Position numbers and translations under genes: made by a program. DNA of 53,869 bases, taken from positions 1 through 53,869 of the IMG/VR virus record IMGVR_UViG_3300028410_000014; one strand, written 5' to 3'. This document shows, piece after piece, positions 4,990 to 53,869 of this stretch. A model generated the notes under the pieces. The model saw only the letters and a program-made list of their open reading frames with translations, searched no databases and had not been told where the DNA came from. The DNA is from a virus. Its lineage: Duplodnaviria; Caudoviricetes. Position 1 is the stretch's first letter. The number at the start of each line of letters is the position of its first letter.

Positions 4990-5215
4990 TGAGTGCTTTC
5001 TCTAAAGGAAGCTTTTCTGAAACTATTTTGATCAATTCAAGAGGGTCATCGTCGACATGATAATCACGCAAAGTGCAATAAAAAATTAAAGCGCCTCTAT
5101 TGTCAAACTCAAAGCTGATGCCAATATTATTGGTCTCAAAAAACTCACAATGCCCTTCGTACACGTGTTCAACTTGTCTGCCATTTGGTCTTACAAACTC
5201 TACTAATTTAAGCAT
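4913..5215 (-). CDS. hypothetical protein
   Basis: GAGGA Shine-Dalgarno upstream of ATG. Confidence 0.65.
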   Translation of the reverse strand: MLKLVEFVRPNGRQVEHVYEGHCEFFETNNIGISFEFDNRGALIFYCTLRDYHVDDDPLELIKIVSEKLPLEKALSECQSLCEDYMSDVSVEQYIEQQKG

Positions 5216-5272
5216 TCTTTAAATCCTCTATAACTCGCTGCATGTTAACTACTCGCCTCTCCAGTTCAGCTA

Positions 5273-5665
5273 TTAAAGCTTCGGTACGTGCGGGATCTTC
5301 ATCTTCGGGACTGTAGGGTTTACACGCACCGGGGCCACCTCTTCTGGTACTCTTAGCTTATCAAGCGCAGCTCCGATGGCCTCAGCTTCTTCGGCTGCAC
5401 TGTAGACTGGCTTCTCCTCTGCGCATGTCTCAAGCTCTGTGAGATACCCCATGTTAACTTTCTGGAAAACCCATTTGTAATTGTATGGACCTGTTGCCTG
5501 ACTTGTCTCATGCACTTCCAGGATGCGGGCAATCTTCAGGCCGTTGGCCGGATGCGCCACCACAATGTCTCCAAAGGACAGAGTCAAGGCCAGGTCTAGA
5601 GGGCATAAGAAAGTATAAGGCTTATCTTCACCGGAAAAATGCGCGCTTACTGTTGTGTTACTCAT
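5273..5665 (-). CDS. hypothetical phage protein with Pro/Lys-rich C-terminus
   Basis: KPYTF...GDIVV...YKWVFQKV pattern; ATG at 5665 preferred. Confidence 0.65.
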   Translation of the reverse strand: MSNTTVSAHFSGEDKPYTFLCPLDLALTLSFGDIVVAHPANGLKIARILEVHETSQATGPYNYKWVFQKVNMGYLTELETCAEEKPVYSAAEEAEAIGAALDKLRVPEEVAPVRVNPTVPKMKIPHVPKL

Positions 5666-5807
5666 CTTCAAATTTCACCTTTCTGAATGTGTAGTGGTAT
5701 TCATGGAGATTTTTTCTTTTTAAAAAATGTATTAGGTAGCTTTCTCTCTTATTTCTCATAAAGTAAAAGTCTAAGGGAAACTTTTTATTTACAGACAAGA
5801 CATACAT
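5658..5807 (-). CDS. small hypothetical protein (49 aa, below ORF-track cutoff)
   Basis: AAGGTG upstream of ATG; MYVLSVNKKFPLDFYFMRNK...KFEDE fills the gap. Confidence 0.45.
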   Translation of the reverse strand: MYVLSVNKKFPLDFYFMRNKRESYLIHFLKRKNLHEYHYTFRKVKFEDE

Positions 5808-5828
5808 AAGACACCTTTTGATTTTAAA

Positions 5829-5852
5829 CCCCCCAACCGTCAGGTCAGGGGC
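5829..5852 (-). terminator. GC-rich hairpin (terminator or processing site)
   Basis: CCCCTGACC-TGAC-GGTTGGGG just after the 5858 stop; near-identical to 6892-6915. Confidence 0.55.
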
Positions 5853-5857
5853 AATAC

Positions 5858-6079
5858 TCAGTAGGCGCGTTTGGACATTGCCTGCTTATTTACTGCGTTT
5901 GCATACGCTTCTTCAGAGGACTCAGTCAAAGCTTCTTTTTCTTCAGCTAGACCTTGCTTGTCATTCAGGAGTTTAGCGTAGGCTTCACCCACGAGTTTTG
6001 TACTGGCATCGTGATCGCCATAATCTTTGACGATCTGCTCGCCCAACATCACTTTATCTTCACTGTATTTGTACATCAT
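5858..6079 (-). CDS. hypothetical protein
   Basis: AGGAG Shine-Dalgarno; followed by hairpin. Confidence 0.65.
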   Translation of the reverse strand: MMYKYSEDKVMLGEQIVKDYGDHDASTKLVGEAYAKLLNDKQGLAEEKEALTESSEEAYANAVNKQAMSKRAY

Positions 6080-14901: not shown

Positions 14902-17541
14902 TCACAAGATGTCGACTGCGGCAATTTTAGTTCCTTTTTCTGTTTTGTTGAAGGATTCTTCACTTGCTTTTTCCTCAATAAAATCTACTGCAGTCATTCG
15001 GCCTGTTGACGGAATAAATCGAAGACCTGCAACTCTGCCTGTTAAGCCGATTGTCCTGGCTTTCAGCACTGCCATGTCTATCGTGTTTCTGTCTGTCTCT
15101 GACTCGGCTGTCATGTTTCTTGCAAAGGCCACTATGTCAAATGAGATTTGCTTTATGGAGCCTGAGTTATGGGTGATGGTATGGTTGCCTAAAAGAAAAC
15201 GTCCATTGCCGTTAAGCACAAAACCATAGTAGTCTTGTACATCCAGGGCTTCAACAGTGATGCCTCTCTTCAGCGCATTGGTCTGTCTATCAACTTTGTT
15301 AATTTTCTGCGTAGGAATTTTATCAATATCCCCAGAGATCATAACTTGAAATATCTCAGAACCATTTGAAGAATAATCACCTGAAATTATCTGAGACCTC
15401 ACAGTACTGTAAAGACCCAGAGATCTTGCAATGCTTTTCACTGTTTTTGCAAGCTCTTTATCTTTCTGGTAGAAATAGAAATGACTGTCACGTGTTGAAT
15501 AAGAGCCATCTGTATCAAGCAAGCCTGCAAGAAGCTCTAGTCGCTGTGCTCTGCTGGCATATTGATAAGCTGAAGGAATATGTTTATTTTTAAACAAGTC
15601 AAGGTTTTTCAGCTTGTTAAGCATTTCTCCTTTTGTTTCTGTTATGAAGTTGAAATATTCTTTGTTGACATTTTTTGGGCTCCCTAAGACTGCGCCGAGC
15701 TCATTAGCTACTCTTTCAACAATACCTATGCGAGCTGCGTCCATGATTCTGAAAGCTGATTTAGAACCATCGCCGAGCCAAGCGCCTAGAGAGTAAGGCG
15801 GGATAAGAAGCTCTTGATGGGGTAAATCATAACCTCCGCTGTAGTGCTGCTTACATCTGTATTGAAAGCTGTCACTTTTGTTTAAGAAATCTTTCACAGA
15901 AATATTAAATAATTTGTCATTATGCGACAATGTCAAGACATGGTCTTCATTACAAATGAAAGAATCATTTGAGGTTTTTGTCACCACTCTGTACATTTGC
16001 TGCGAGCCTCGCCTTAATTTTAAAATCTGCCTAGGCTGACCGTTGTCACCAATTAGGCAATCTCCGACTTTTAAATTTTGAACTGCTTCAGAAGTGCCGT
16101 TCGAAAGCAAGACTTTTGTGTCTCTAGCAAGGCATCCTTTTATATCATCCAGAGAAGGCAGTCTTCCTTCTTCGAATGACTTTTTGTCGTTAGGCGTTTT
16201 GCGTAGATGCGACACAAGACCGATCCATACGTCAGGATAGCGCTTCACAATACGCAGCAAGTCGTTCATTATTTTATCTTGTGCTTCATTACCTTGCAAG
16301 TTTTCTGCCCCTTCCGATACAAGTATCGTGATGTGGTCAATGAAAATTTTCTTGCAGCCAACCAAGCACATATATTCTATGCGATCGATTATACTGCCGT
16401 CATTTGCAGAGCCTTGATGATCTAATAGCTCTACTCTGTCGCCTTCAAAGACTTCATTAAAGCCGACTTCAAGATCTTCTAGAGAAATCTCTTCCAGGGC
16501 TTTATTACGCTTCAGCTGCATACTTGCAAGAGACTTACCGGTCTCACCGGGGGCTTCTTCCAAGCTTATTACGCCAATCTTCTCCTTAGATGTCGCCAGG
16601 ATATGCAAGATTATTTCTCGCATTATTGTACTTTTACCCGAACCTGTGCCGGAGATGAATAGCGTAATCTCTCCGCCGCGCATGCCTTTAAGCTTACTGT
16701 TGAGACCGGCAAGACAAGGCGGAAATGGAATTGAAACAACTTTACTTGCTGCTACAATTGCTTCCCATATAGCAGTTCGCTTTATGATCCCGGAGGGTAC
16801 AAACGTAGTTGCGTCAAAGATACATTGAAGTAGCTCTTTGCCACCCATTTCGACAAGCACGTTATTTGCATCATTTTTCGGGAGTTTTGTGACACGCGCT
16901 TTATCGTAACCAATGATTCTTATAGCTTCTTTTTGTGCCTTCAAGCCTGCGTCGTCTTCATCAAAACAAATCACAACTTCTTGAAAAGAGCGAATCCAAG
17001 AGCGATGCTCTACAAGGTGCTCTGCCATTGCGGAAGAAGAAATACCTACTATTGGGTAAAACTTATTGTATCTTTGATGGGATGCCTCGGCTACTGCAAG
17101 AGTATCGCATTCACCTTCGCATATAATTAAACGCTTGCCACCGCCGTTAAAGTGTTCCATACCGAATAGGGACTTGGAACCAGACGGTGTCCATTGAAAC
17201 TCTTTGGGGAGTTTGCGGATTTTATAATGTGTTTCTTTTTCATAGGGGTAGTAATGTGTGTCAATATTACCGTCTGAATTGTAAGAAACTTTCACATTGT
17301 AAAAAGCACAGACTGCTTTGGTAATAGCTCTTGCTTCAAAGCCTCTTGTTGCGTATGTCTTTATCTCTTCTGGATCTATCCTTTTAGGACTGTACATTCT
17401 GGGTGCTGGCTTGACTGCTTCATCAGATTTAAAACTTTTGTCACATGAGAAGCATTTTGAACCGCCGTCTTCATATATCTGACGTGCATCAGTTGAGTCA
17501 CAAGCCAAGCAGGGCTGATTTCGCTTGACGATTTTGCCCAT
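14902..17541 (-). CDS. T7 gp4-like primase-helicase precursor containing an intein
   Basis: N-terminal CxxC/CxxC Zn finger, TOPRIM (CEGECD, FDEDDAG), Walker A SGTGSGKS, IFIDHI, LVSHL, DDIKG|SGSIKQ. Confidence 0.95.
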   Translation of the reverse strand: MGKIVKRNQPCLACDSTDARQIYEDGGSKCFSCDKSFKSDEAVKPAPRMYSPKRIDPEEIKTYATRGFEARAITKAVCAFYNVKVSYNSDGNIDTHYYPYEKETHYKIRKLPKEFQWTPSGSKSLFGMEHFNGGGKRLIICEGECDTLAVAEASHQRYNKFYPIVGISSSAMAEHLVEHRSWIRSFQEVVICFDEDDAGLKAQKEAIRIIGYDKARVTKLPKNDANNVLVEMGGKELLQCIFDATTFVPSGIIKRTAIWEAIVAASKVVSIPFPPCLAGLNSKLKGMRGGEITLFISGTGSGKSTIMREIILHILATSKEKIGVISLEEAPGETGKSLASMQLKRNKALEEISLEDLEVGFNEVFEGDRVELLDHQGSANDGSIIDRIEYMCLVGCKKIFIDHITILVSEGAENLQGNEAQDKIMNDLLRIVKRYPDVWIGLVSHLRKTPNDKKSFEEGRLPSLDDIKGCLARDTKVLLSNGTSEAVQNLKVGDCLIGDNGQPRQILKLRRGSQQMYRVVTKTSNDSFICNEDHVLTLSHNDKLFNISVKDFLNKSDSFQYRCKQHYSGGYDLPHQELLIPPYSLGAWLGDGSKSAFRIMDAARIGIVERVANELGAVLGSPKNVNKEYFNFITETKGEMLNKLKNLDLFKNKHIPSAYQYASRAQRLELLAGLLDTDGSYSTRDSHFYFYQKDKELAKTVKSIARSLGLYSTVRSQIISGDYSSNGSEIFQVMISGDIDKIPTQKINKVDRQTNALKRGITVEALDVQDYYGFVLNGNGRFLLGNHTITHNSGSIKQISFDIVAFARNMTAESETDRNTIDMAVLKARTIGLTGRVAGLRFIPSTGRMTAVDFIEEKASEESFNKTEKGTKIAAVDIL
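15166..16134 (-). mobile_element. intein (323 aa) with LAGLIDADG homing endonuclease
   Basis: Begins CLARDT, ends ITHN followed by Ser; block B ICNEDH; LGAWLGDGS and LAGLLDTDGS motifs; removal restores DDIKGSGSIKQ. Confidence 0.93.
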
Positions 17542-23101: not shown

Positions 23102-23485
23102 TTAAAAAACAGAAAGCGCATCTCGCACTGCCTGGGGGATATCTATATCATTTCTGAACAAGTAAACAACACCGAACTCATCGTTTACAAGGTGCAGGAT
23201 TTCCCATGCATTCTCGTACTCTTCTAAATACTCCCAATTTACAAAGGCTTCATCATGTGCAACCATTGTCAGATGCAATAAGAAACCTTTATCACTTGTT
23301 AGATAAGCTTCCTCCTTGCTAAAGTCTTCAGCTGTTTCTAAAACAACAATTATGCCGATCTCTGACATCTTGTTACCCTGCCCTACCCACTCTTCAATAC
23401 TTAGTTGATAGCTATTAAGAGCAATTCTGTTGATTATAGGGTCTTCAATTGCTTCAATGTCTTCGAGTGTTCTGCAGATTATCAT
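23102..23485 (-). CDS. acidic hypothetical protein coupled to the RNAP
   Basis: ATGA overlap with RNAP stop. Confidence 0.7.
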   Translation of the reverse strand: MIICRTLEDIEAIEDPIINRIALNSYQLSIEEWVGQGNKMSEIGIIVVLETAEDFSKEEAYLTSDKGFLLHLTMVAHDEAFVNWEYLEEYENAWEILHLVNDEFGVVYLFRNDIDIPQAVRDALSVF

Positions 23486-25716
23486 GCAAATGCGTACTCC
23501 GAGTCAAGAACCAGTGTCAGGTCTAATTTGCCTTTCTCTATTTTTGTGATGTCCGCTCCTATGTCATTGAAAATTGATGTCAGTGGGTCTTTAAGGTACA
23601 GCTCAACAAAGGTCTCCCTGACAATCCTGAACAGATCATTCATGTCACCCAACAACGCCCCGTAGGAATCATGGACTGTTGTTACCGGGAATGGCGCTCT
23701 GCAGACTGTCAGTATGAGATGGCCCGCATCAAGGCTGTGAATTATGTTCGGTGCGGCACCTTGAGATTGCTTATTTTTAGAGGGCTTTGGCTGCTCCAGA
23801 TAAGAAATCATCAATTGGTACGTATTCTCGTAATACCCCGTGTTCAATCTCTTGCCTTTAGGCGCTCCGTATTGCACCCAAGTTTTCTTAACTTCTCCTT
23901 CAATGTAATGCTGTACTACAGGAAAGTTGGTTATTGGGACAGTCCAAGAGAGGAACTCACCGCGCTGTTCCGCTGCTTTGCCCGCTTGCTCAAATGTTGA
24001 GAGAAGACGCATCGGCTTTTTAAGACAATCCATACAAACTCTGAAAAGATCTCTTCCGAAATAAGCACCCCAAGTGTGTTCCATGTAAGTTAATAACTCA
24101 ATGCCGTGTTTGCGAGAGTCATTTATTACTTGCTCTCCCAGGCCATAAGGCTTAGAGCCGTACGGAAGAGTCATTACGCCTCTCTTGCATATCTTTCTTT
24201 TTTGCTTATCTTCGTTGACTCTCAACCAGAAGATCGGAGCAGCTCTTTTAATGATCTCCTTGTTTTTCAGCTTGTACTTCTTATAGATCTCAATAAGCTC
24301 TTGGCGTTGCTCGCTCTTAGCTTCTGTTGCATTGATCTGCTTCTTCATTTCGATGAGGGTATCAATGCATTTGTCCAGACTCTTCTTAGTCCTTGAAGTC
24401 ATTTCACTGACTTCTTTCTCAAGTTCAGCCCACATGTGGTATGCCACAAACATATAAAGGTCGCCCGGAAGATCTGAGGGCACTAAGTTTACATATGGTG
24501 CCGTCTCTTCATCCAGCATCAAAGCCGATAGATGTTGACTTCCGTTAGTGCTGCCGTCAAGATATGCTTCTAAGCCTGATTCATAAGAGAAGTCCTCGAC
24601 ATCACCCATTTGATGCTGTCTCAATTTCAACATCTCAAAGCATGCAGCAATAAACTGCCAGGGCTTATCTGCCTTCATCCATCCTTGGTTTAACTTAGGA
24701 TTTTCTGCGTACGCAACTATAATCTCTTCATTGTCAAGAACCCACATGTAGCGATCTTTCAGAGGTATCTTGTCTGTTTTTAACTCGTCTTCTCTCCCGG
24801 CGTCCCCGCCCCAGTTAGAAGCAATGCTGACACATAGCCAAAAGAAGCCGCTCTCTTTAATCGCTTTTCTGTCGTTTCGTATCAAAAGGCCTTTGGCCAG
24901 ATCGGAGCCTTGCTCGTTGAGATAGGCGGTTGCCACATACTTTCTTCCTCTGAAATCCATGTATTGTAAATGGTAGAAAGTGTCATCTAAGAATCGTTCA
25001 GCAATGCTGCTGATTGACTTTGTCTCCCTGATCTTTGTAGATCTTGCTTCAGGGCTGTGCGCCTTCCAGACATCATTAAATGCGTCTGCCTTGTTTCTGA
25101 AAGACCACAGCTGTAACTCGTGGACAGCTTTGTTGATGTTCCAACCAACTGATTGAGATTTATTAATAGCCTCATATATCAATGGATGTGTTAGCGGAGT
25201 TACTGTAGATCTGATTTTGTGGTTTGTTTTGATAAGCAATGCACCGGTTGAATGGCGAAAGCTTGTCCATGCGTCATAAGGTAGAAGTGATGGTAGCTTT
25301 TCTAAAGTAGCCGGTGGAAGTTCGTTCCATAATTTGATGAGAGCTGCATCGTCCACTACTTCTACAATATAGGCTTGGTGTCCATTTGAACCTTTGCTTT
25401 TCACTACTTTCAGCAAATTAAGTTCCTCAAAAGAGTAAAGAATAAATGCGCCTGTTTTAGCAGCCAACGCTGAATCTTTTTTGAGTTGCTCTTTGGACAT
25501 AAGCTTTTTACCAATAGCACACACAATTTCTGTAAGGAACGTGAATTGTGCTCCTGACTTTACTCCCTTTTTAGGTCTAGTGTAAAGATACACGACGCCT
25601 ATGATATCGTTGATGTGTTTTTCAAGGGACAACGCCTTCAAGTATTTTAGAGGCATTCTGATTGAAATTTCAGAACCAACTCGGGTTTCAAGACTATTCA
25701 AAATTTTGTTGCGCAT
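23482..25716 (-). CDS. T7-like single-subunit RNA polymerase (744 aa, intact)
   Basis: DFRGRKY, DGSTNGSQH (A), RKICKRGVMTLPYG (B), APNIIHSLD and TVHDS (C), C-terminal YAFA. Confidence 0.96.
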   Translation of the reverse strand: MRNKILNSLETRVGSEISIRMPLKYLKALSLEKHINDIIGVVYLYTRPKKGVKSGAQFTFLTEIVCAIGKKLMSKEQLKKDSALAAKTGAFILYSFEELNLLKVVKSKGSNGHQAYIVEVVDDAALIKLWNELPPATLEKLPSLLPYDAWTSFRHSTGALLIKTNHKIRSTVTPLTHPLIYEAINKSQSVGWNINKAVHELQLWSFRNKADAFNDVWKAHSPEARSTKIRETKSISSIAERFLDDTFYHLQYMDFRGRKYVATAYLNEQGSDLAKGLLIRNDRKAIKESGFFWLCVSIASNWGGDAGREDELKTDKIPLKDRYMWVLDNEEIIVAYAENPKLNQGWMKADKPWQFIAACFEMLKLRQHQMGDVEDFSYESGLEAYLDGSTNGSQHLSALMLDEETAPYVNLVPSDLPGDLYMFVAYHMWAELEKEVSEMTSRTKKSLDKCIDTLIEMKKQINATEAKSEQRQELIEIYKKYKLKNKEIIKRAAPIFWLRVNEDKQKRKICKRGVMTLPYGSKPYGLGEQVINDSRKHGIELLTYMEHTWGAYFGRDLFRVCMDCLKKPMRLLSTFEQAGKAAEQRGEFLSWTVPITNFPVVQHYIEGEVKKTWVQYGAPKGKRLNTGYYENTYQLMISYLEQPKPSKNKQSQGAAPNIIHSLDAGHLILTVCRAPFPVTTVHDSYGALLGDMNDLFRIVRETFVELYLKDPLTSIFNDIGADITKIEKGKLDLTLVLDSEYAFA

Positions 25717-50292: not shown

Positions 50293-50334
50293 TTCGTTTA
50301 ATGTTATGTGAAAGTGATGTTAATACATTATTTA

Positions 50335-53300
50335 TTAACCGACGCCATACCAAGCGCGGTCTTTAGTGAAGCCTTCAGGGATCTTCTCTAAAATATCTAA
50401 AGCCTTAAGTATGTCATCATCTGTAAGCAATTTCCCACCTACGCGTGACCTACCGGCTACAGGTATCAAACCTATGTCAATAGCTTCTTCCCTGAACTTG
50501 TTGTAGACTTCCCTGGGTAGACCTCGTTTAAGCATTTCTTTCAGTGTCATCTCAATGACATTGTCTTTGAGAACTTCTGCGTATATTTCACGAAGCCCTT
50601 CTCGTGCTTGTGTCATGACTGCTGCGTTAGCGAAGAACGCATCATGTATAGTGCTTGTTGGAACATTGTTCTTCTTGCCCCATAAGTGAAACTTCTTTAC
50701 GATAACTGCGTCATTGGAGTGATTCGTTGTGTTAAGAGGAAGGCGTGACGTTCCTCCGTCCTATAAATTCAACTTTGCAAATTCACCGTGATGTACTTTA
50801 GCCATTTCATCATATGTGCCTGCAGCTTCAAGCTCACTTTCAAATTGAATTTATAGAATCCTACATGTTACCATGCAGACCAGACTATATCTTACATCCA
50901 TTGTGGACGTCTCCGCGCTTCGAACTCACTTGAGCTCTACAAGTCTCATATCCCGTTTTGGGATGTACACTCTAGTCGTTGCACCTTCAAACCCATTCCT
51001 GGGTAAGCTTGGCTCAGGATTGTCCACTTGGGAGTTCCCCTGAATTCACGGAGTTTTATAACGGCAATTACTTACCGTTTACTGCGTAGGCTGTCCTGGC
51101 TCTTGTGGCATCAGCAATATCATTTATCTTACCTGACTCACCTGTTGCAACATCCCACCACCCGGCCTCAGTCTTCTGATCCACTTGCACTATGCTGGTG
51201 ATCATCTTGCCGTTCTTGTCACGATACATCAGCTTCTCTTCAAACGACTGCGTGAAGTTCTGCTCTATTGTCTTACCGTCAAAGTTCACCCAAGGCACAT
51301 TTGTCCAACTCTTCGGGAGCTTATTGGCGTAAAGCAATTCAACACCGTCTGAGATTGTCTTTCCGAGAAACTTACGCTTTAATATGACAGTACCTGTTCT
51401 GCGATTGCCTGACGGGTCACTTCCGAAGATGATCTCTGACATTGCGTTCATCTTGTTCCAAAAAGGAAGCCTCTCAACAAAGTCTTTGAGATATAACTTA
51501 CTGGGATCAAGTCCCAAGGCGGAAGCCACACCAGTAGGGAGCTTGGTGCCTTTTCTCACACTGCCTACAGTTGCCGCTTTAAATATCTCCTTGAAGTCAA
51601 ACGCGGCTGAGGACGGCTTAGCGTTTGTGAGATACGCCTGTGCCAACCTGCCAAAGAACTTTGTGAAGTCCTTAAGTATAGGCACCTGTTCAGACAGCTG
51701 CGCAGACATGATCTTTGCGATTGTCTTAAAGTCATCAGGTGTGACTACTTTGTTGTAACTGCGTGACATCTTCTCCACAAGATCTTTTGTCTGAGAGTCA
51801 AGGAACCACAACTGATCCATTATGTCAACACCGGGATCTGTGCCTTTATTGAACACATCTCGGACGTCTGTGCGAAGTGCCCTCAAACGTGCTGCCATCT
51901 CAGGATCAAAGCGATCATATCTGGCGGCTCTGGCAGAGATCTCATTCAGCACTGTGTCCCGATCAGCTGCTTTTACAACCAATGTGTCACCGTATTTTCC
52001 CAGAGCTTTACCTAACTTACCTTCGACATTGAATATGCCGGTCTTCTCACCAGCGCCGTATAAAGTACTGTTATTAACTAAGGTCGCTAAGCTTAGCCAG
52101 ACAAAGTGCCTGCTGCATGTCGCCATGCAGATTAGACTATATCTTACATCCATTGTGGATGTCTCCGCGCTTTGAGCTCGCTTGAGCCCTACGGGTTTCA
52201 TAACCAGTTAAGGTCGTTTACCCTAGTCGTTGAACCTTCAAATGTGTTTCCACATGAGCTTGGCTGCTGATTATCTCTTAGAGACGTCCCAGCAATTCAC
52301 GGAGTTTATACATGGCCACTTTAACCATGTTTTGCATTACGTTAAACACAAGCGCTACCCTGTGCTGGCTTTCACCCTGCATGTCGCCATGCAGATCAGA
52401 CTATATCATCACCTGTTTAGGTGTCCTGCGCTTCGGATTCGCTTGAACCCTACGGACTTCATCTGCCGTTCTGGCCGGTATGCCCTAGTCGTTGCACCTT
52501 CAAGTCCCTTCCGGGACGAGCTTGGCTCAGGATTGTCTCAAAGAGATGTCCCCTGAATTCACAGGATTTTAAAAGGCCCAATTTAAGCCTTTGCTGCCTT
52601 ACGTAAGTCGCGTTCTGTCAAGCCTAACCTCTCATTCAGCTCCCTAAACACAGGATCATTGAATGTTGCTGCAGCTATTTCATCGTACCTTTGCTTTCAA
52701 CTATAATCGTTACATATAGCCGGTTCTCTGATGAACTCCTATATGTCGCCATATAGACAAGACTATATCATCACCTTCATAGGTGTCCCGAGCTTCGAGC
52801 TCACTTGAGCCCTACGGATTTCATCCACCGTTCTGGCGGGTATATCCTAGTCGTTGAACCTTCAAACCCATTCCTGGGTAAGCTTGGCTGCTGATTATCT
52901 CTTAGAGACGTCCCAGCAATTCACGGGATTTTACAAGGCCGTACAGCCTTCGCTTCTGATTTGTGGGAACTACGTTAGAAAGCTCCGCCAACTGTTTGTT
53001 GCGGGTTGTCAAGGCAATGATCTGAGCACCTGACGAAGAAGCATCCTGCTCCAGGGCGAGTCCTGTTTTGTAGTTTACAAGGTTGTTTAGAGATTCTTTA
53101 GAATAGAAGTCAGTTAAGGCTACACTTCGCATGTCTTTGTCAGTTAAATACTGTACATTTAATATTCTGTTAGACTTAATGGCTGACTGTATTCGGTGCA
53201 ATCCATCTACAATCACTTGACGCCCGTTTGTCTCCCAGATCAAGACAGGTGCATTCATATCAGGTGGCGTATTGCGTACTTCTAGCTTAGTATTGACTTG

Positions 53301-53869
53301 TGGACTTTTTTCTAGTGACTTTGCATCTAACTTATATACAGGGCGCTTTAAATTAAAGAGAGCGTCAACTTGGTATAGTACACCGTTTCTTGAAAAAGTA
53401 TTACCTACAGGTTGTTTCAAGAAGTCATCTATCTTTGAAGTCTCAATGGCGAACCTGAAAAACTTCCCCAACTCTTCCGCGTCAATGCTTTGCACAATAT
53501 CCATTTCAAGAATAGCGCGAATGTCTCCGGGCTTATTCCTGCGCATATGGTTGCCAATCTTAATCATATCAGGCCGAAACTTTTCAGCTATTTTCTGGCG
53601 TCCTGTGATAGTCAGTGAGCTGAAACGCCCTTCAAACTTCTCGTCAAGCCCACCCAAGAAAGCACCCACCTGATCCTGAAAATTCTCAAATGCGTCTTTG
53701 CTGAAGGCGTAATCTTCGGCGGTGTTAAGGAATGGACGAAATGTCTCACCACTTTGCGGACCTATCAGGCCTCTATCGTAGATTCGTGCACGATGGTCAA
53801 TGAAAGGGTTGTTGGAAAACGCAGTGTCATCTTTCCTCAACCACTCCATAGCCTTGAATCGCTCATAAG
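50335..53869 (-). CDS. second T7-family RNA polymerase (probable virion RNAP), 5' end outside window, five exons: 53869-52945, 52688-52586, 52334-52324, 52067-51074, 50724-50335
   Basis: Joined exons give one frame with DHRARIY, QDASSSGAQ (A), RKAAKA|QNMV|TLYG (B), VNG|NHSND and TIHDAF (C); 800 aa from Met at 53849, frame open to the window edge. Confidence 0.92.
50725..51073 (-). mobile_element. group I intron 4 (349 nt) with homing-endonuclease relic
   Basis: P1 AACGGU/GCCGUU with U-G; core CAACGACUAG and AAGAUAUAGUC; terminal G; removal joins VNG to NHSND. Confidence 0.92.
50761..50844 (-). pseudogene. AP2-domain C-terminal fragment of a lost HNH-AP2 homing endonuclease
   Basis: FESELEAAGTYDEMAKVHHGEFAKLNL* with no start or nuclease domain, inside intron 4. 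Confidence 0.72.
52068..52323 (-). mobile_element. group I intron 3 (256 nt)
   Basis: P1 ACAUGGU/GCCAUGU; 7-bp P10 UAAAGUG/UACUUUA; conserved core; terminal G. Confidence 0.93.
52335..52585 (-). mobile_element. group I intron 2 (251 nt)
   Basis: P1 AAAGGCU/GGCCUUU; starts with in-frame UAA; conserved core; terminal G. Confidence 0.92.
52689..52944 (-). mobile_element. group I intron 1 (256 nt)
   Basis: P1 AAGGCU/GGCCUU closing GUAC loop; conserved core; terminal G; removal gives RRL-YDEIAA. Confidence 0.92.

Follow-up and report, generated by a model that had tools for sequence, protein, structure and literature searches.

We analyzed a linear 53,869-bp viral record from IMG/VR (IMGVR_UViG_3300028410_000014; estimated to be 77% complete), referred to here as the window, whose right end holds a minus-strand gene for a MuF domain joined to a single-subunit RNA polymerase (RNAP). 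The gene runs past the window end, with its 5′ part missing. Eleven nucleotides (nt) of this gene, CAAAACATGGT, sit between two group I introns at the centre of polymerase motif B. We consider it very probable that these 11 nt are an internal exon of the MuF- and T7/N4-like RNAP gene of an uncultured, siphovirus-like lake phage and that the layout is a by-product of two mobile introns. Because each of the two intron sites is singly occupied in other phages, two independent invasions would explain the layout, and no regulatory purpose is needed. A first-pass annotation of this DNA had placed a micro-exon with the same letters on the minus strand at 52334..52324, and our analysis bears this out.

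Four matches to the Rfam family RF00028 fall within the gene. All exceed the gathering score of 50 (73.7, 79.8, 72.4 and 68.5 bits), and this covariance-model score places introns 1–4 in group I. We set 5′ splice sites by the U·G pair that closes P1 and 3′ sites by the terminal G together with homology. For intron 3, the Rfam 5′ boundary intrudes into the tail of intron 2 at low posterior probability and was replaced by the P1 common to all other introns at this site. The gene then reads as follows.

Exon 1, 52945..53869, minus strand: partial; ends ...CAGAAGCGAAGGCT, has RNAP motif A (DASSSGAQ) and aligns colinearly to both the intron-less relative L016 and the spliced gene of EBPR siphovirus 1.
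Intron 1, 52944-52689, minus strand: group I, 256 nt, no open reading frame (ORF); Rfam match at 52990-52739, 73.7 bits; P1 AAGGCU/GGCCUU, P10 GUAC/GUAC.
Exon 2, 52688-52586, minus strand: 103 nt; encodes (L)YDEIAAATFNDPVFRELNERLGLTERDLRKAAKA, the same peptide being contiguous with its flanks in relatives.
Intron 2, 52585-52335, minus strand: group I, 251 nt, no ORF; Rfam match at 52596-52377, 79.8 bits; in-frame TAA at its start, terminal G at 52335.
Micro-exon, 52334-52324, minus strand: 11 nt, CAAAACATGGT; codons for Q, N and M plus the first two V bases, at the centre of motif B.
Intron 3, 52323-52068, minus strand: group I, 256 nt, no ORF; Rfam match at 52355-52113, 72.4 bits; terminal G at 52068.
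Exon 4, 52067-51074, minus strand: 994 nt; begins T ACT TTA TAC GGC (V-T-L-Y-G) and ends ...GTA AAC GGT.
Intron 4, 51073-50725, minus strand: group I, 349 nt; Rfam match at 51083-50861, 68.5 bits; its last 36 nt are in frame and stop-free, yet intronic.
Exon 5, 50724-50335, minus strand: NHSNDAVIV...IHDAFF (motif C region) to the stop codon.

Joining the five exons gives 2421 nt, or 806 codons and a stop, with no internal stop (reading ...RDLRKAAKAQNMVTLYG... / ...LGLTERDLRKAAKAQNMVTLYGAGEKTG...). Both the spliced gene of EBPR siphovirus 1 and 80 viral-contig relatives are colinear with this frame. Leaving out the micro-exon shifts the frame, as the first-pass annotation had anticipated, and translation ends after 6 codons (...KAAKAYFIRRW-stop). 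Read-through likewise meets stops: intron 2 opens with one, and a ribosome entering intron 4, 1 or 3 would translate 1, 14 or 15 codons, respectively, before reaching one. The exon is shorter than about four codons, the QNMV that it supplies is invariant in relatives, and the frame is open only when it is included. By our own arithmetic, a random 11-mer would encode Q-N-M-V(GT) with a chance of about 1e-6 per position, so the micro-exon is not a chance occurrence. Taken with the flanking RF00028 matches (79.8 and 72.4 bits) and the open 806-codon frame, these comparisons support the reading of a genuine internal coding exon between two group I introns. Removal of both introns and retention of the exon would be required for RKAAKAQNMVTLYG and for an active enzyme.

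A scan of viral contigs returned 187 relatives of the gene, and the counts that follow use the best 80 of these plus EBPR siphovirus 1 (81 in all). The pattern [AS]KAQNMV[TS][FL]YG is unbroken in 64 of the 81. Alignment of 19 intron-less relatives shows R380, K384, Q386, N387, M388, V389, Y392 and G393 to be invariant, with QNMV present in 19 of 19. The spliced protein carries motifs A (DASSSGAQ), B (RKAAKAQNMVTLYG) and C (IHDAFF) in the right order, and these too are invariant in the 19. The earlier suggestion that the micro-exon supplies the centre of R-x3-K-x7-YG thus stands. This spacing equals that of T7 R627, K631, Y639 and G640.

The same survey shows how the two sites are filled elsewhere. 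An intron lies only after QNMV in eight of the 81 relatives (L001, L007, L014, L026, L052, L053, L054 and L082) and only before it in six (L003, L004, L045, L079, L080 and L081). Three are not judgeable: L010 and L024 begin inside a site-3 intron, with the upstream side cut off, and L006 stops short of the region. Both introns together are found in 0 of the 78 judgeable relatives, drawn from the best 80 of 187 and EBPR siphovirus 1. We propose that two different mobile group I introns settled at neighbouring homing sites 11 bp apart, within the R-x3-K-x7-YG of motif B, where the enzyme is most conserved. Single-site occupants in relatives are often carriers of an HNH homing endonuclease, introns 2 and 3 of the window are without an ORF, and each of the latter would be expected to self-splice independently. 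A twintron, in which two introns likewise seem adjacent with almost nothing between them, was considered and rejected: a conserved coding 11-mer separates the introns, each site is singly occupied in the 14 relatives, and the introns are side by side, not nested.

Closely related strains suggest an order of events. The nearest, L003 and L004, share an exon 4 protein 98% identical to that of the window and have no intron at sites 1, 3 or 4. Because they have intron 2 alone, the simplest history would be one in which intron 2 was present first and intron 3 was gained later at the adjacent site. Their site-2 intron is 98.5% identical to intron 2 over the first 206 nt and carries a 221-amino-acid ORF with an HNH_3 match (27.7 bits; cut-off 24.8); the window intron 2 looks like an endonuclease-less form of it. 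Exon 4 opens with 13 nt of which 5 differ from L003, all synonymously, compared with 112 of 1608 overall, and these differences fit either co-conversion with an incoming intron 3 or selection for P10. The intron 1 and intron 4 sites are filled in some relatives and empty in most; site 1, for instance, is uninterrupted in L003 and EBPR siphovirus 1. At site 4, AVNGNHSND is contiguous in L003, and sequencing runs X3 and X4 contain an intron-4-less allele with the joint 50724/51075 and one letter between. Because of this joint, the last 36 in-frame nt before exon 5 can be assigned to intron 4.

Among deposited phage genomes the sole match is EBPR siphovirus 1 (JF412302.1), at 57% identity over exon 4. 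Its DNA reads ...CTGCGTAAAGCAGCGAAAGCCCAGAACATGGT, continues into a group I intron that carries gp48, and resumes the frame at A ACA TTC TAC GGG. The homologous gene thus holds an HNH-bearing group I intron exactly at the site of window intron 3 (directly after ...CAGAACATGGT). It differs from the window gene in having a single intron, with KAAKAQNMV contiguous. That intron (L001 locus 5150-5999) scores 40.5 bits, under the Rfam threshold, and is unannotated. GenBank splits the MuF–polymerase gene into three, gp47 (‘head protein’), gp48 (HNH endonuclease) and gp49 (hypothetical), an example of the kind of miss by gene callers that the first-pass annotation had expected.

Two observations concern the variability of introns at these sites. 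In L081, the site-2 intron lacks a G immediately ahead of CAAAAC (...cttaacattaca/CAAAAC; L081 2590-2611), and use of the nearest upstream G would insert four residues (LNIT) within motif B; decay of this intron or an unusual 3′ site may be the reason. L006, which is 99% identical to the window in exon 4, has an intron 4 with an extra 416 nt (L006 1059-1474) between window-intron positions 229 and 226, and the window intron 4 may be a deletion derivative.

The pairings of the two introns with the exon can be described with differing firmness. Intron 3 would pick its 5′ splice site by pairing its internal guide GCCAUGU (52316-52310) with the last seven exon bases, ACAUGGU. The resulting P1 of 7 bp (-9.2 kcal/mol) agrees with the seven bases named in the first-pass annotation. 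On other exon ends the guide does no better than -5.9 kcal/mol (-5.9 on the end of exon 2), and folding of the 551-nt precursor places the helix in the centroid as well as in the local minimum-energy structure. Eight other site-3 introns, of the HNH type, follow the same 5′ exon and have guides of the form GCC[AT]TG[AT]. Exon 4 would be aligned by P10, in which UAAAGUG (52323-52317) pairs with the first seven bases of that exon, UACUUUA (7 bp, -3.9 kcal/mol). P10 measures 6-8 bp in the nine site-3 introns, in two of them with one internal mismatch; the terminal G is present in 9 of 9, and the P10 guide co-varies with synonymous exon positions.

Intron 2 would recognise AAAGGCU at the end of exon 2 (52592-52586) through GGCCUUU (52578-52572) and would end at its terminal G after a conserved hairpin. 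Its P10 on the micro-exon, CAA/UUG, is marginal, with 3 bp and +0.8 kcal/mol as an isolated duplex. The first-pass annotation had stated that the first three exon bases can form this P10, which is correct insofar as the bases can pair, but the pairing is energetically negligible. Its picture of two ribozymes acting on almost the whole exon is accordingly firm for intron 3 and nominal only for intron 2. Across introns 1–4, exons ending in ...GGCU or ...GGU face GGCC../GCC.. guides (-7.1, -8.2, -9.2 and -7.2 kcal/mol), and a terminal G precedes each 3′ exon, with a P10 of 7 bp in intron 3, 4 bp in intron 1 and the marginal 3 bp in intron 2.

The first-pass annotation had inferred that splicing is ordered or coupled and that an off switch is built in. 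As a regulatory device of this kind, the tight packing would force the order of splicing or yield a controlled share of exon-skipped, frameshifted transcripts and thereby set or switch off the dose of virion polymerase. We regard such a device as improbable. Its appeal is that 10 of the 11 exon bases would be engaged by intron 3 (P1) and, possibly, intron 2 (P10), that the introns are paralogues 75-82% identical to each other, and that a message lacking the micro-exon would be read for only 6 more codons before a stop. In SIOphi, exon skipping among similar group I introns of a single phage gene is also on record: the results name the terminase gene and the discussion gives >47.2% of polymerase-gene transcripts (PMC11878797), and exon skipping is recorded for Twort orf142, as cited in PMC11878797 and PMC3073962. 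The pairings themselves point the other way: the intron 2 guide is no better on exon 4 (+0.6) than on the micro-exon (+0.8), the intron 3 guide misfits the end of exon 2 (-5.9 versus -9.2), and the predicted guide sequences overall do not favour micro-exon skipping. The use of the sites singly in 14 relatives and never jointly also fits an accidental stacking of mobile elements.

The position of the gene is a further argument against dose control. It is a late gene of the structural module, and if its product resembles the N4 virion polymerase, each virion would need few copies. We give similarly poor odds to a scheme in which interfering ribozymes force a 5′-to-3′ co-transcriptional order and sizeable skipping produces a truncated, MuF-only protein that tunes the amount of packaged polymerase. 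Either splicing order leaves a normal substrate for the other intron, and intron 2, being transcribed first, may often be finished before the core of intron 3 exists. The regulatory inference is unsupported, and the structure can be explained without it.

Should an exon be prone to skipping, it would be the 103-nt exon 2 and not the micro-exon, because the guides of introns 1 and 2 do not discriminate between the two 5′ exons. Both introns follow the same exon heptamer, GC[GA]AAGGCT (52945-52954 and 52586-52595), with guides at 52935-52940 and 52571-52578, and pairing energies on the two exons are nearly equal (-7.1 versus -7.0 and -8.6 versus -8.2 kcal/mol). Interchangeable guides could lead to cross-reaction and to skipping of exon 2. 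The shared heptamer is also the kind of short match on which any spread by reverse splicing would depend.

The boundary between intron 2 and the exon deserves separate consideration. The Rfam alignment halts at 52377, and the 42 nt that follow are in frame and stop-free, such that an exon of 53 nt adding 14 residues (GESQHRVALVFNVM) can be drawn if intron 2 ends with the Rfam match. This reading is extremely unlikely. The 14 extra residues occur in 0 of the 64 uninterrupted relatives, and their insertion would disrupt the R-x3-K-x7-YG spacing. In L003 the corresponding place holds the 221-amino-acid HNH ORF in another frame, then a homologous hairpin and then ...AATG/CAAAAC.

The hairpin itself (52366-52345, within the 42-nt 3′ tail of intron 2) belongs to a recurrent type. 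A 7-8-bp hairpin with a UA[GA]CG-containing loop stands just before the splice site in 10 of 18 intron 3′ ends examined, and the ten have 8 different stem sequences, all of which keep the pairing. It is absent from the other 8 of the 18, and in six of these the endonuclease ORF appears to reach the splice site. Because the tail holds a hairpin with compensating stem changes, we place the 42 nt inside intron 2 and retain the 11-nt exon.

Group I introns are repeats in this gene, several loci start or end inside an intron, and contigs from the Logan collection are short there, all of which might suggest an assembly chimera in which reads of an intron-2-only strain and an intron-3-only strain were joined. 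We find this hardly credible. Single-intron alleles would share just the 11-nt exon, and 11 nt is below the word sizes of assemblers. The same layout moreover recurs in L146, a metagenome contig from another assembly that is about 99% identical to the window, with about 1% base differences and a fifth intron; introns 1, 2 and 3 are 100% identical and the micro-exon is the same. L146 was the one true hit among 91 metagenome matches to a degenerate junction pattern, while none of 12 viral matches was true (blastn and tblastn). A further degenerate pattern gave 3 matches, none true, and an exact 30-mer across the exon had no match in viral contigs, a search set that possibly lacked the window's own record.

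Logan contigs also bridge the exon. Those from runs X1 and X2 (lake water, 2017) match the window over 52273-52535 without a difference, and one from run X3 (salt lake, 2019) has 4 differences and 2 gaps over 52278-52504; in all three runs they extend more than 31 nt on both sides of the exon. X1 is possibly the same sample as the window, which leaves X3 and L146 as the more independent witnesses. Run X4 has no exon-bridging contig among those listed, and a joint 52145>52520 in X3 and X4 is not interpretable, with only 20 letters on its short side and these in a repeated intron family. With L146 and the bridging contigs of three runs in agreement, the double-intron layout is not an assembly artefact. 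As a separate observation, contig depth in X3 and X4 reaches 300-1400 over intron cores (52323-52441 and 52799-53036) and about 20-120 over exons. Because core depth is so far above exon depth, many further genomes in these salt-lake samples must contain the intron family.

What the gene encodes is best seen in relatives with fuller sequence. The intron-less L016 has a 1684-amino-acid ORF that matches Phage_Mu_F in its N-terminal part (56.9 bits) and RNA_pol (PF00940) in its C-terminal part (45.8 bits; cut-off 22). The same RNA_pol model gives 23.8 bits on EBPR gp49 and 17.6 on window exon 5 alone, a fragment that falls below the cut-off. A profile of the 19 relatives aligned DASSSGAQ...RKAAKAQNMVTFYG to motifs A and B of N4 RNAP2 (6dt7_B; E = 0.032), and hhalign aligned NHSND...IHDAFF to the HSQD...IHDSFG region of T7 RNAP (E = 0.0011; C-terminus only). 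A phmmer search of the polymerase part of L016 against the PDB reached only E ~0.3 at best, to T7 RNAP. The missing 5′ part of the gene is supplied by L146, with a MuF-like N-terminus.

The genomic setting is that of a structural module, with genes for scaffold, major head protein, major tail protein, a 2866-amino-acid tape measure and tail fibre as neighbours. A second, canonical T7-like RNAP is encoded at 23485-25716 on the minus strand (phrog_414, E = 2.8e-114). The phage encodes two single-subunit polymerases, one of them MuF-fused, and in this it combines an N4-like strategy with siphovirus-type tail genes. According to PMC5512222, MuF fusions are presumed to be packaged in the phage head and passed into the host cell, and the gene product is therefore probably a virion polymerase in the manner of N4.

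Several points weigh against our interpretation of the 11 nt. No RNA run was listed among those containing window sequence 50300-53869, and splicing and exon inclusion, along with splicing order and the view of a by-product rather than a device, are predictions from the DNA. The assignment of motif B to the polymerase family draws on weak matches (N4, E = 0.032; T7, C-terminus only) and on a residue pattern in T7 numbering, and an AlphaFold2 model is too poor for a fold search (mean pLDDT 54.8, pTM 0.41). The layout is rare (0 of 78) and could be mildly deleterious or transient. Finally, a single nucleotide separates P1 of intron 3 from the 3′ splice site of intron 2, and ribozyme cores on helices so close may interfere; general knowledge of group I architecture makes it improbable that both cores would be docked at once.

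The introns have a history partly separate from that of the gene. The four are paralogues of one family, 75-82% identical pairwise and in a mosaic pattern. Intron 1 is 95-96% identical to same-site introns of L008, L017 and L020, whose polymerases are only 63-72% identical to that of the window, and intron 2 is 1.5% different from its L003 counterpart, compared with 59 of 331 codons different in exon 4. Because the introns are near-identical across more diverged polymerases, they would seem to move between phages faster than the gene diverges. L146 and the X1/X2 contigs have an additional 268-nt group I intron in exon 1 (window ~53735-53739; L146 1703-1970) that is absent from the window, and the flanking Arg codon at this site differs (AGA versus CGT). 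Near-identical strains thus have differing numbers of introns in this gene: L003 has one, the window has four, and L146 has at least four, its contig stopping short of site 4.

So heavy a load, with four introns here and the extra one after ~53739 in L146 and the X1/X2 contigs, and with introns that have lost their endonuclease genes, might indicate a decaying gene, overrun by introns and non-functional. We judge this very unlikely. The exons are all intact and in frame, and the U·G pair, terminal G, P1 and P10 are kept in all four introns. Codon differences in exon 4 from L003 are 54 synonymous and 5 non-synonymous, and codon differences of the gene from L005 are 121 and 28, low non-synonymous shares in each case; the gene is under purifying selection. 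Near-identical strains moreover occur in lake samples of both 2017 and 2019. A working polymerase gene that has accumulated mobile introns remains the reading that we prefer.

Very short exons between self-splicing introns have precedents. Exons of less than about four codons ‘occur regularly in mitochondrial genes’ in the words of PMC10352661, and placozoan cox1 has a 1-bp exon between two group IB introns that PMC5436844 attributes to insertion of a second intron. The mitochondrial mini-exons and the phage exon are alike in that a few conserved, indispensable codons lie between two self-splicing introns and are missed by ordinary gene modelling, and in their origin from a second intron inserted beside an existing one. 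They differ in that the former are organellar and often dependent on protein factors, whereas the phage introns are short, ORF-less paralogues of one family. The cox1 case rests on RNA-seq, whereas the phage exon is known here from its DNA. Multi-intron genes of Bacillus and Staphylococcus phages likewise contain multiple group I introns related to one another, together with a small exon in the interior and a documented potential for skipping (the size of the small exon of phiNIT1 is unstated in the main text of PMC11878797). The present gene differs from these in encoding a MuF-fused single-subunit RNAP and in having an exon of 11 nt that is out of frame and inside a catalytic motif.

Of the deposited phage records, 408 match some part of the two-intron stretch and none covers 80% of it. 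The literature that we searched contained no report of a micro-exon in a phage RNAP gene, which does not show that none exists. The window thus presents a known phenomenon in a new host gene, with an exon that is unusually short and lies within a catalytic motif.

The arrangement offers a clean natural test of how little space two self-splicing ribozymes need between them to function, with one helix of the downstream intron taking 7 of the 11 exon bases. The precursor from exon 2 to the start of exon 4 is short, at about 620 nt, and is easily tested in vitro. The case also illustrates that the catalytic centre of an essential phage enzyme can escape gene callers, and the near-identical strains with differing intron numbers capture, at one moment, how rapidly wild phage populations gain and lose introns.

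Two features of the window lie apart from the introns. An in-frame insert of about 105 residues (53049-53432, minus strand; ...VIVDGLHRIQ...) stands between the N-terminal region and motif A of the polymerase gene. It is absent from most relatives, L003 has a different insert there, and X3 and X4 contigs replace it (joint 53066>53425). A Pfam search with this insert gave no match; its VIVDGLHRIQ motif resembles ParB-type nuclease domains. Elsewhere in the window, a primase-helicase ORF of 879 amino acids (14905-17541, minus strand) matches terminase-large-subunit PHROGs in its C-terminal half (residues ~470-730), an odd combination.

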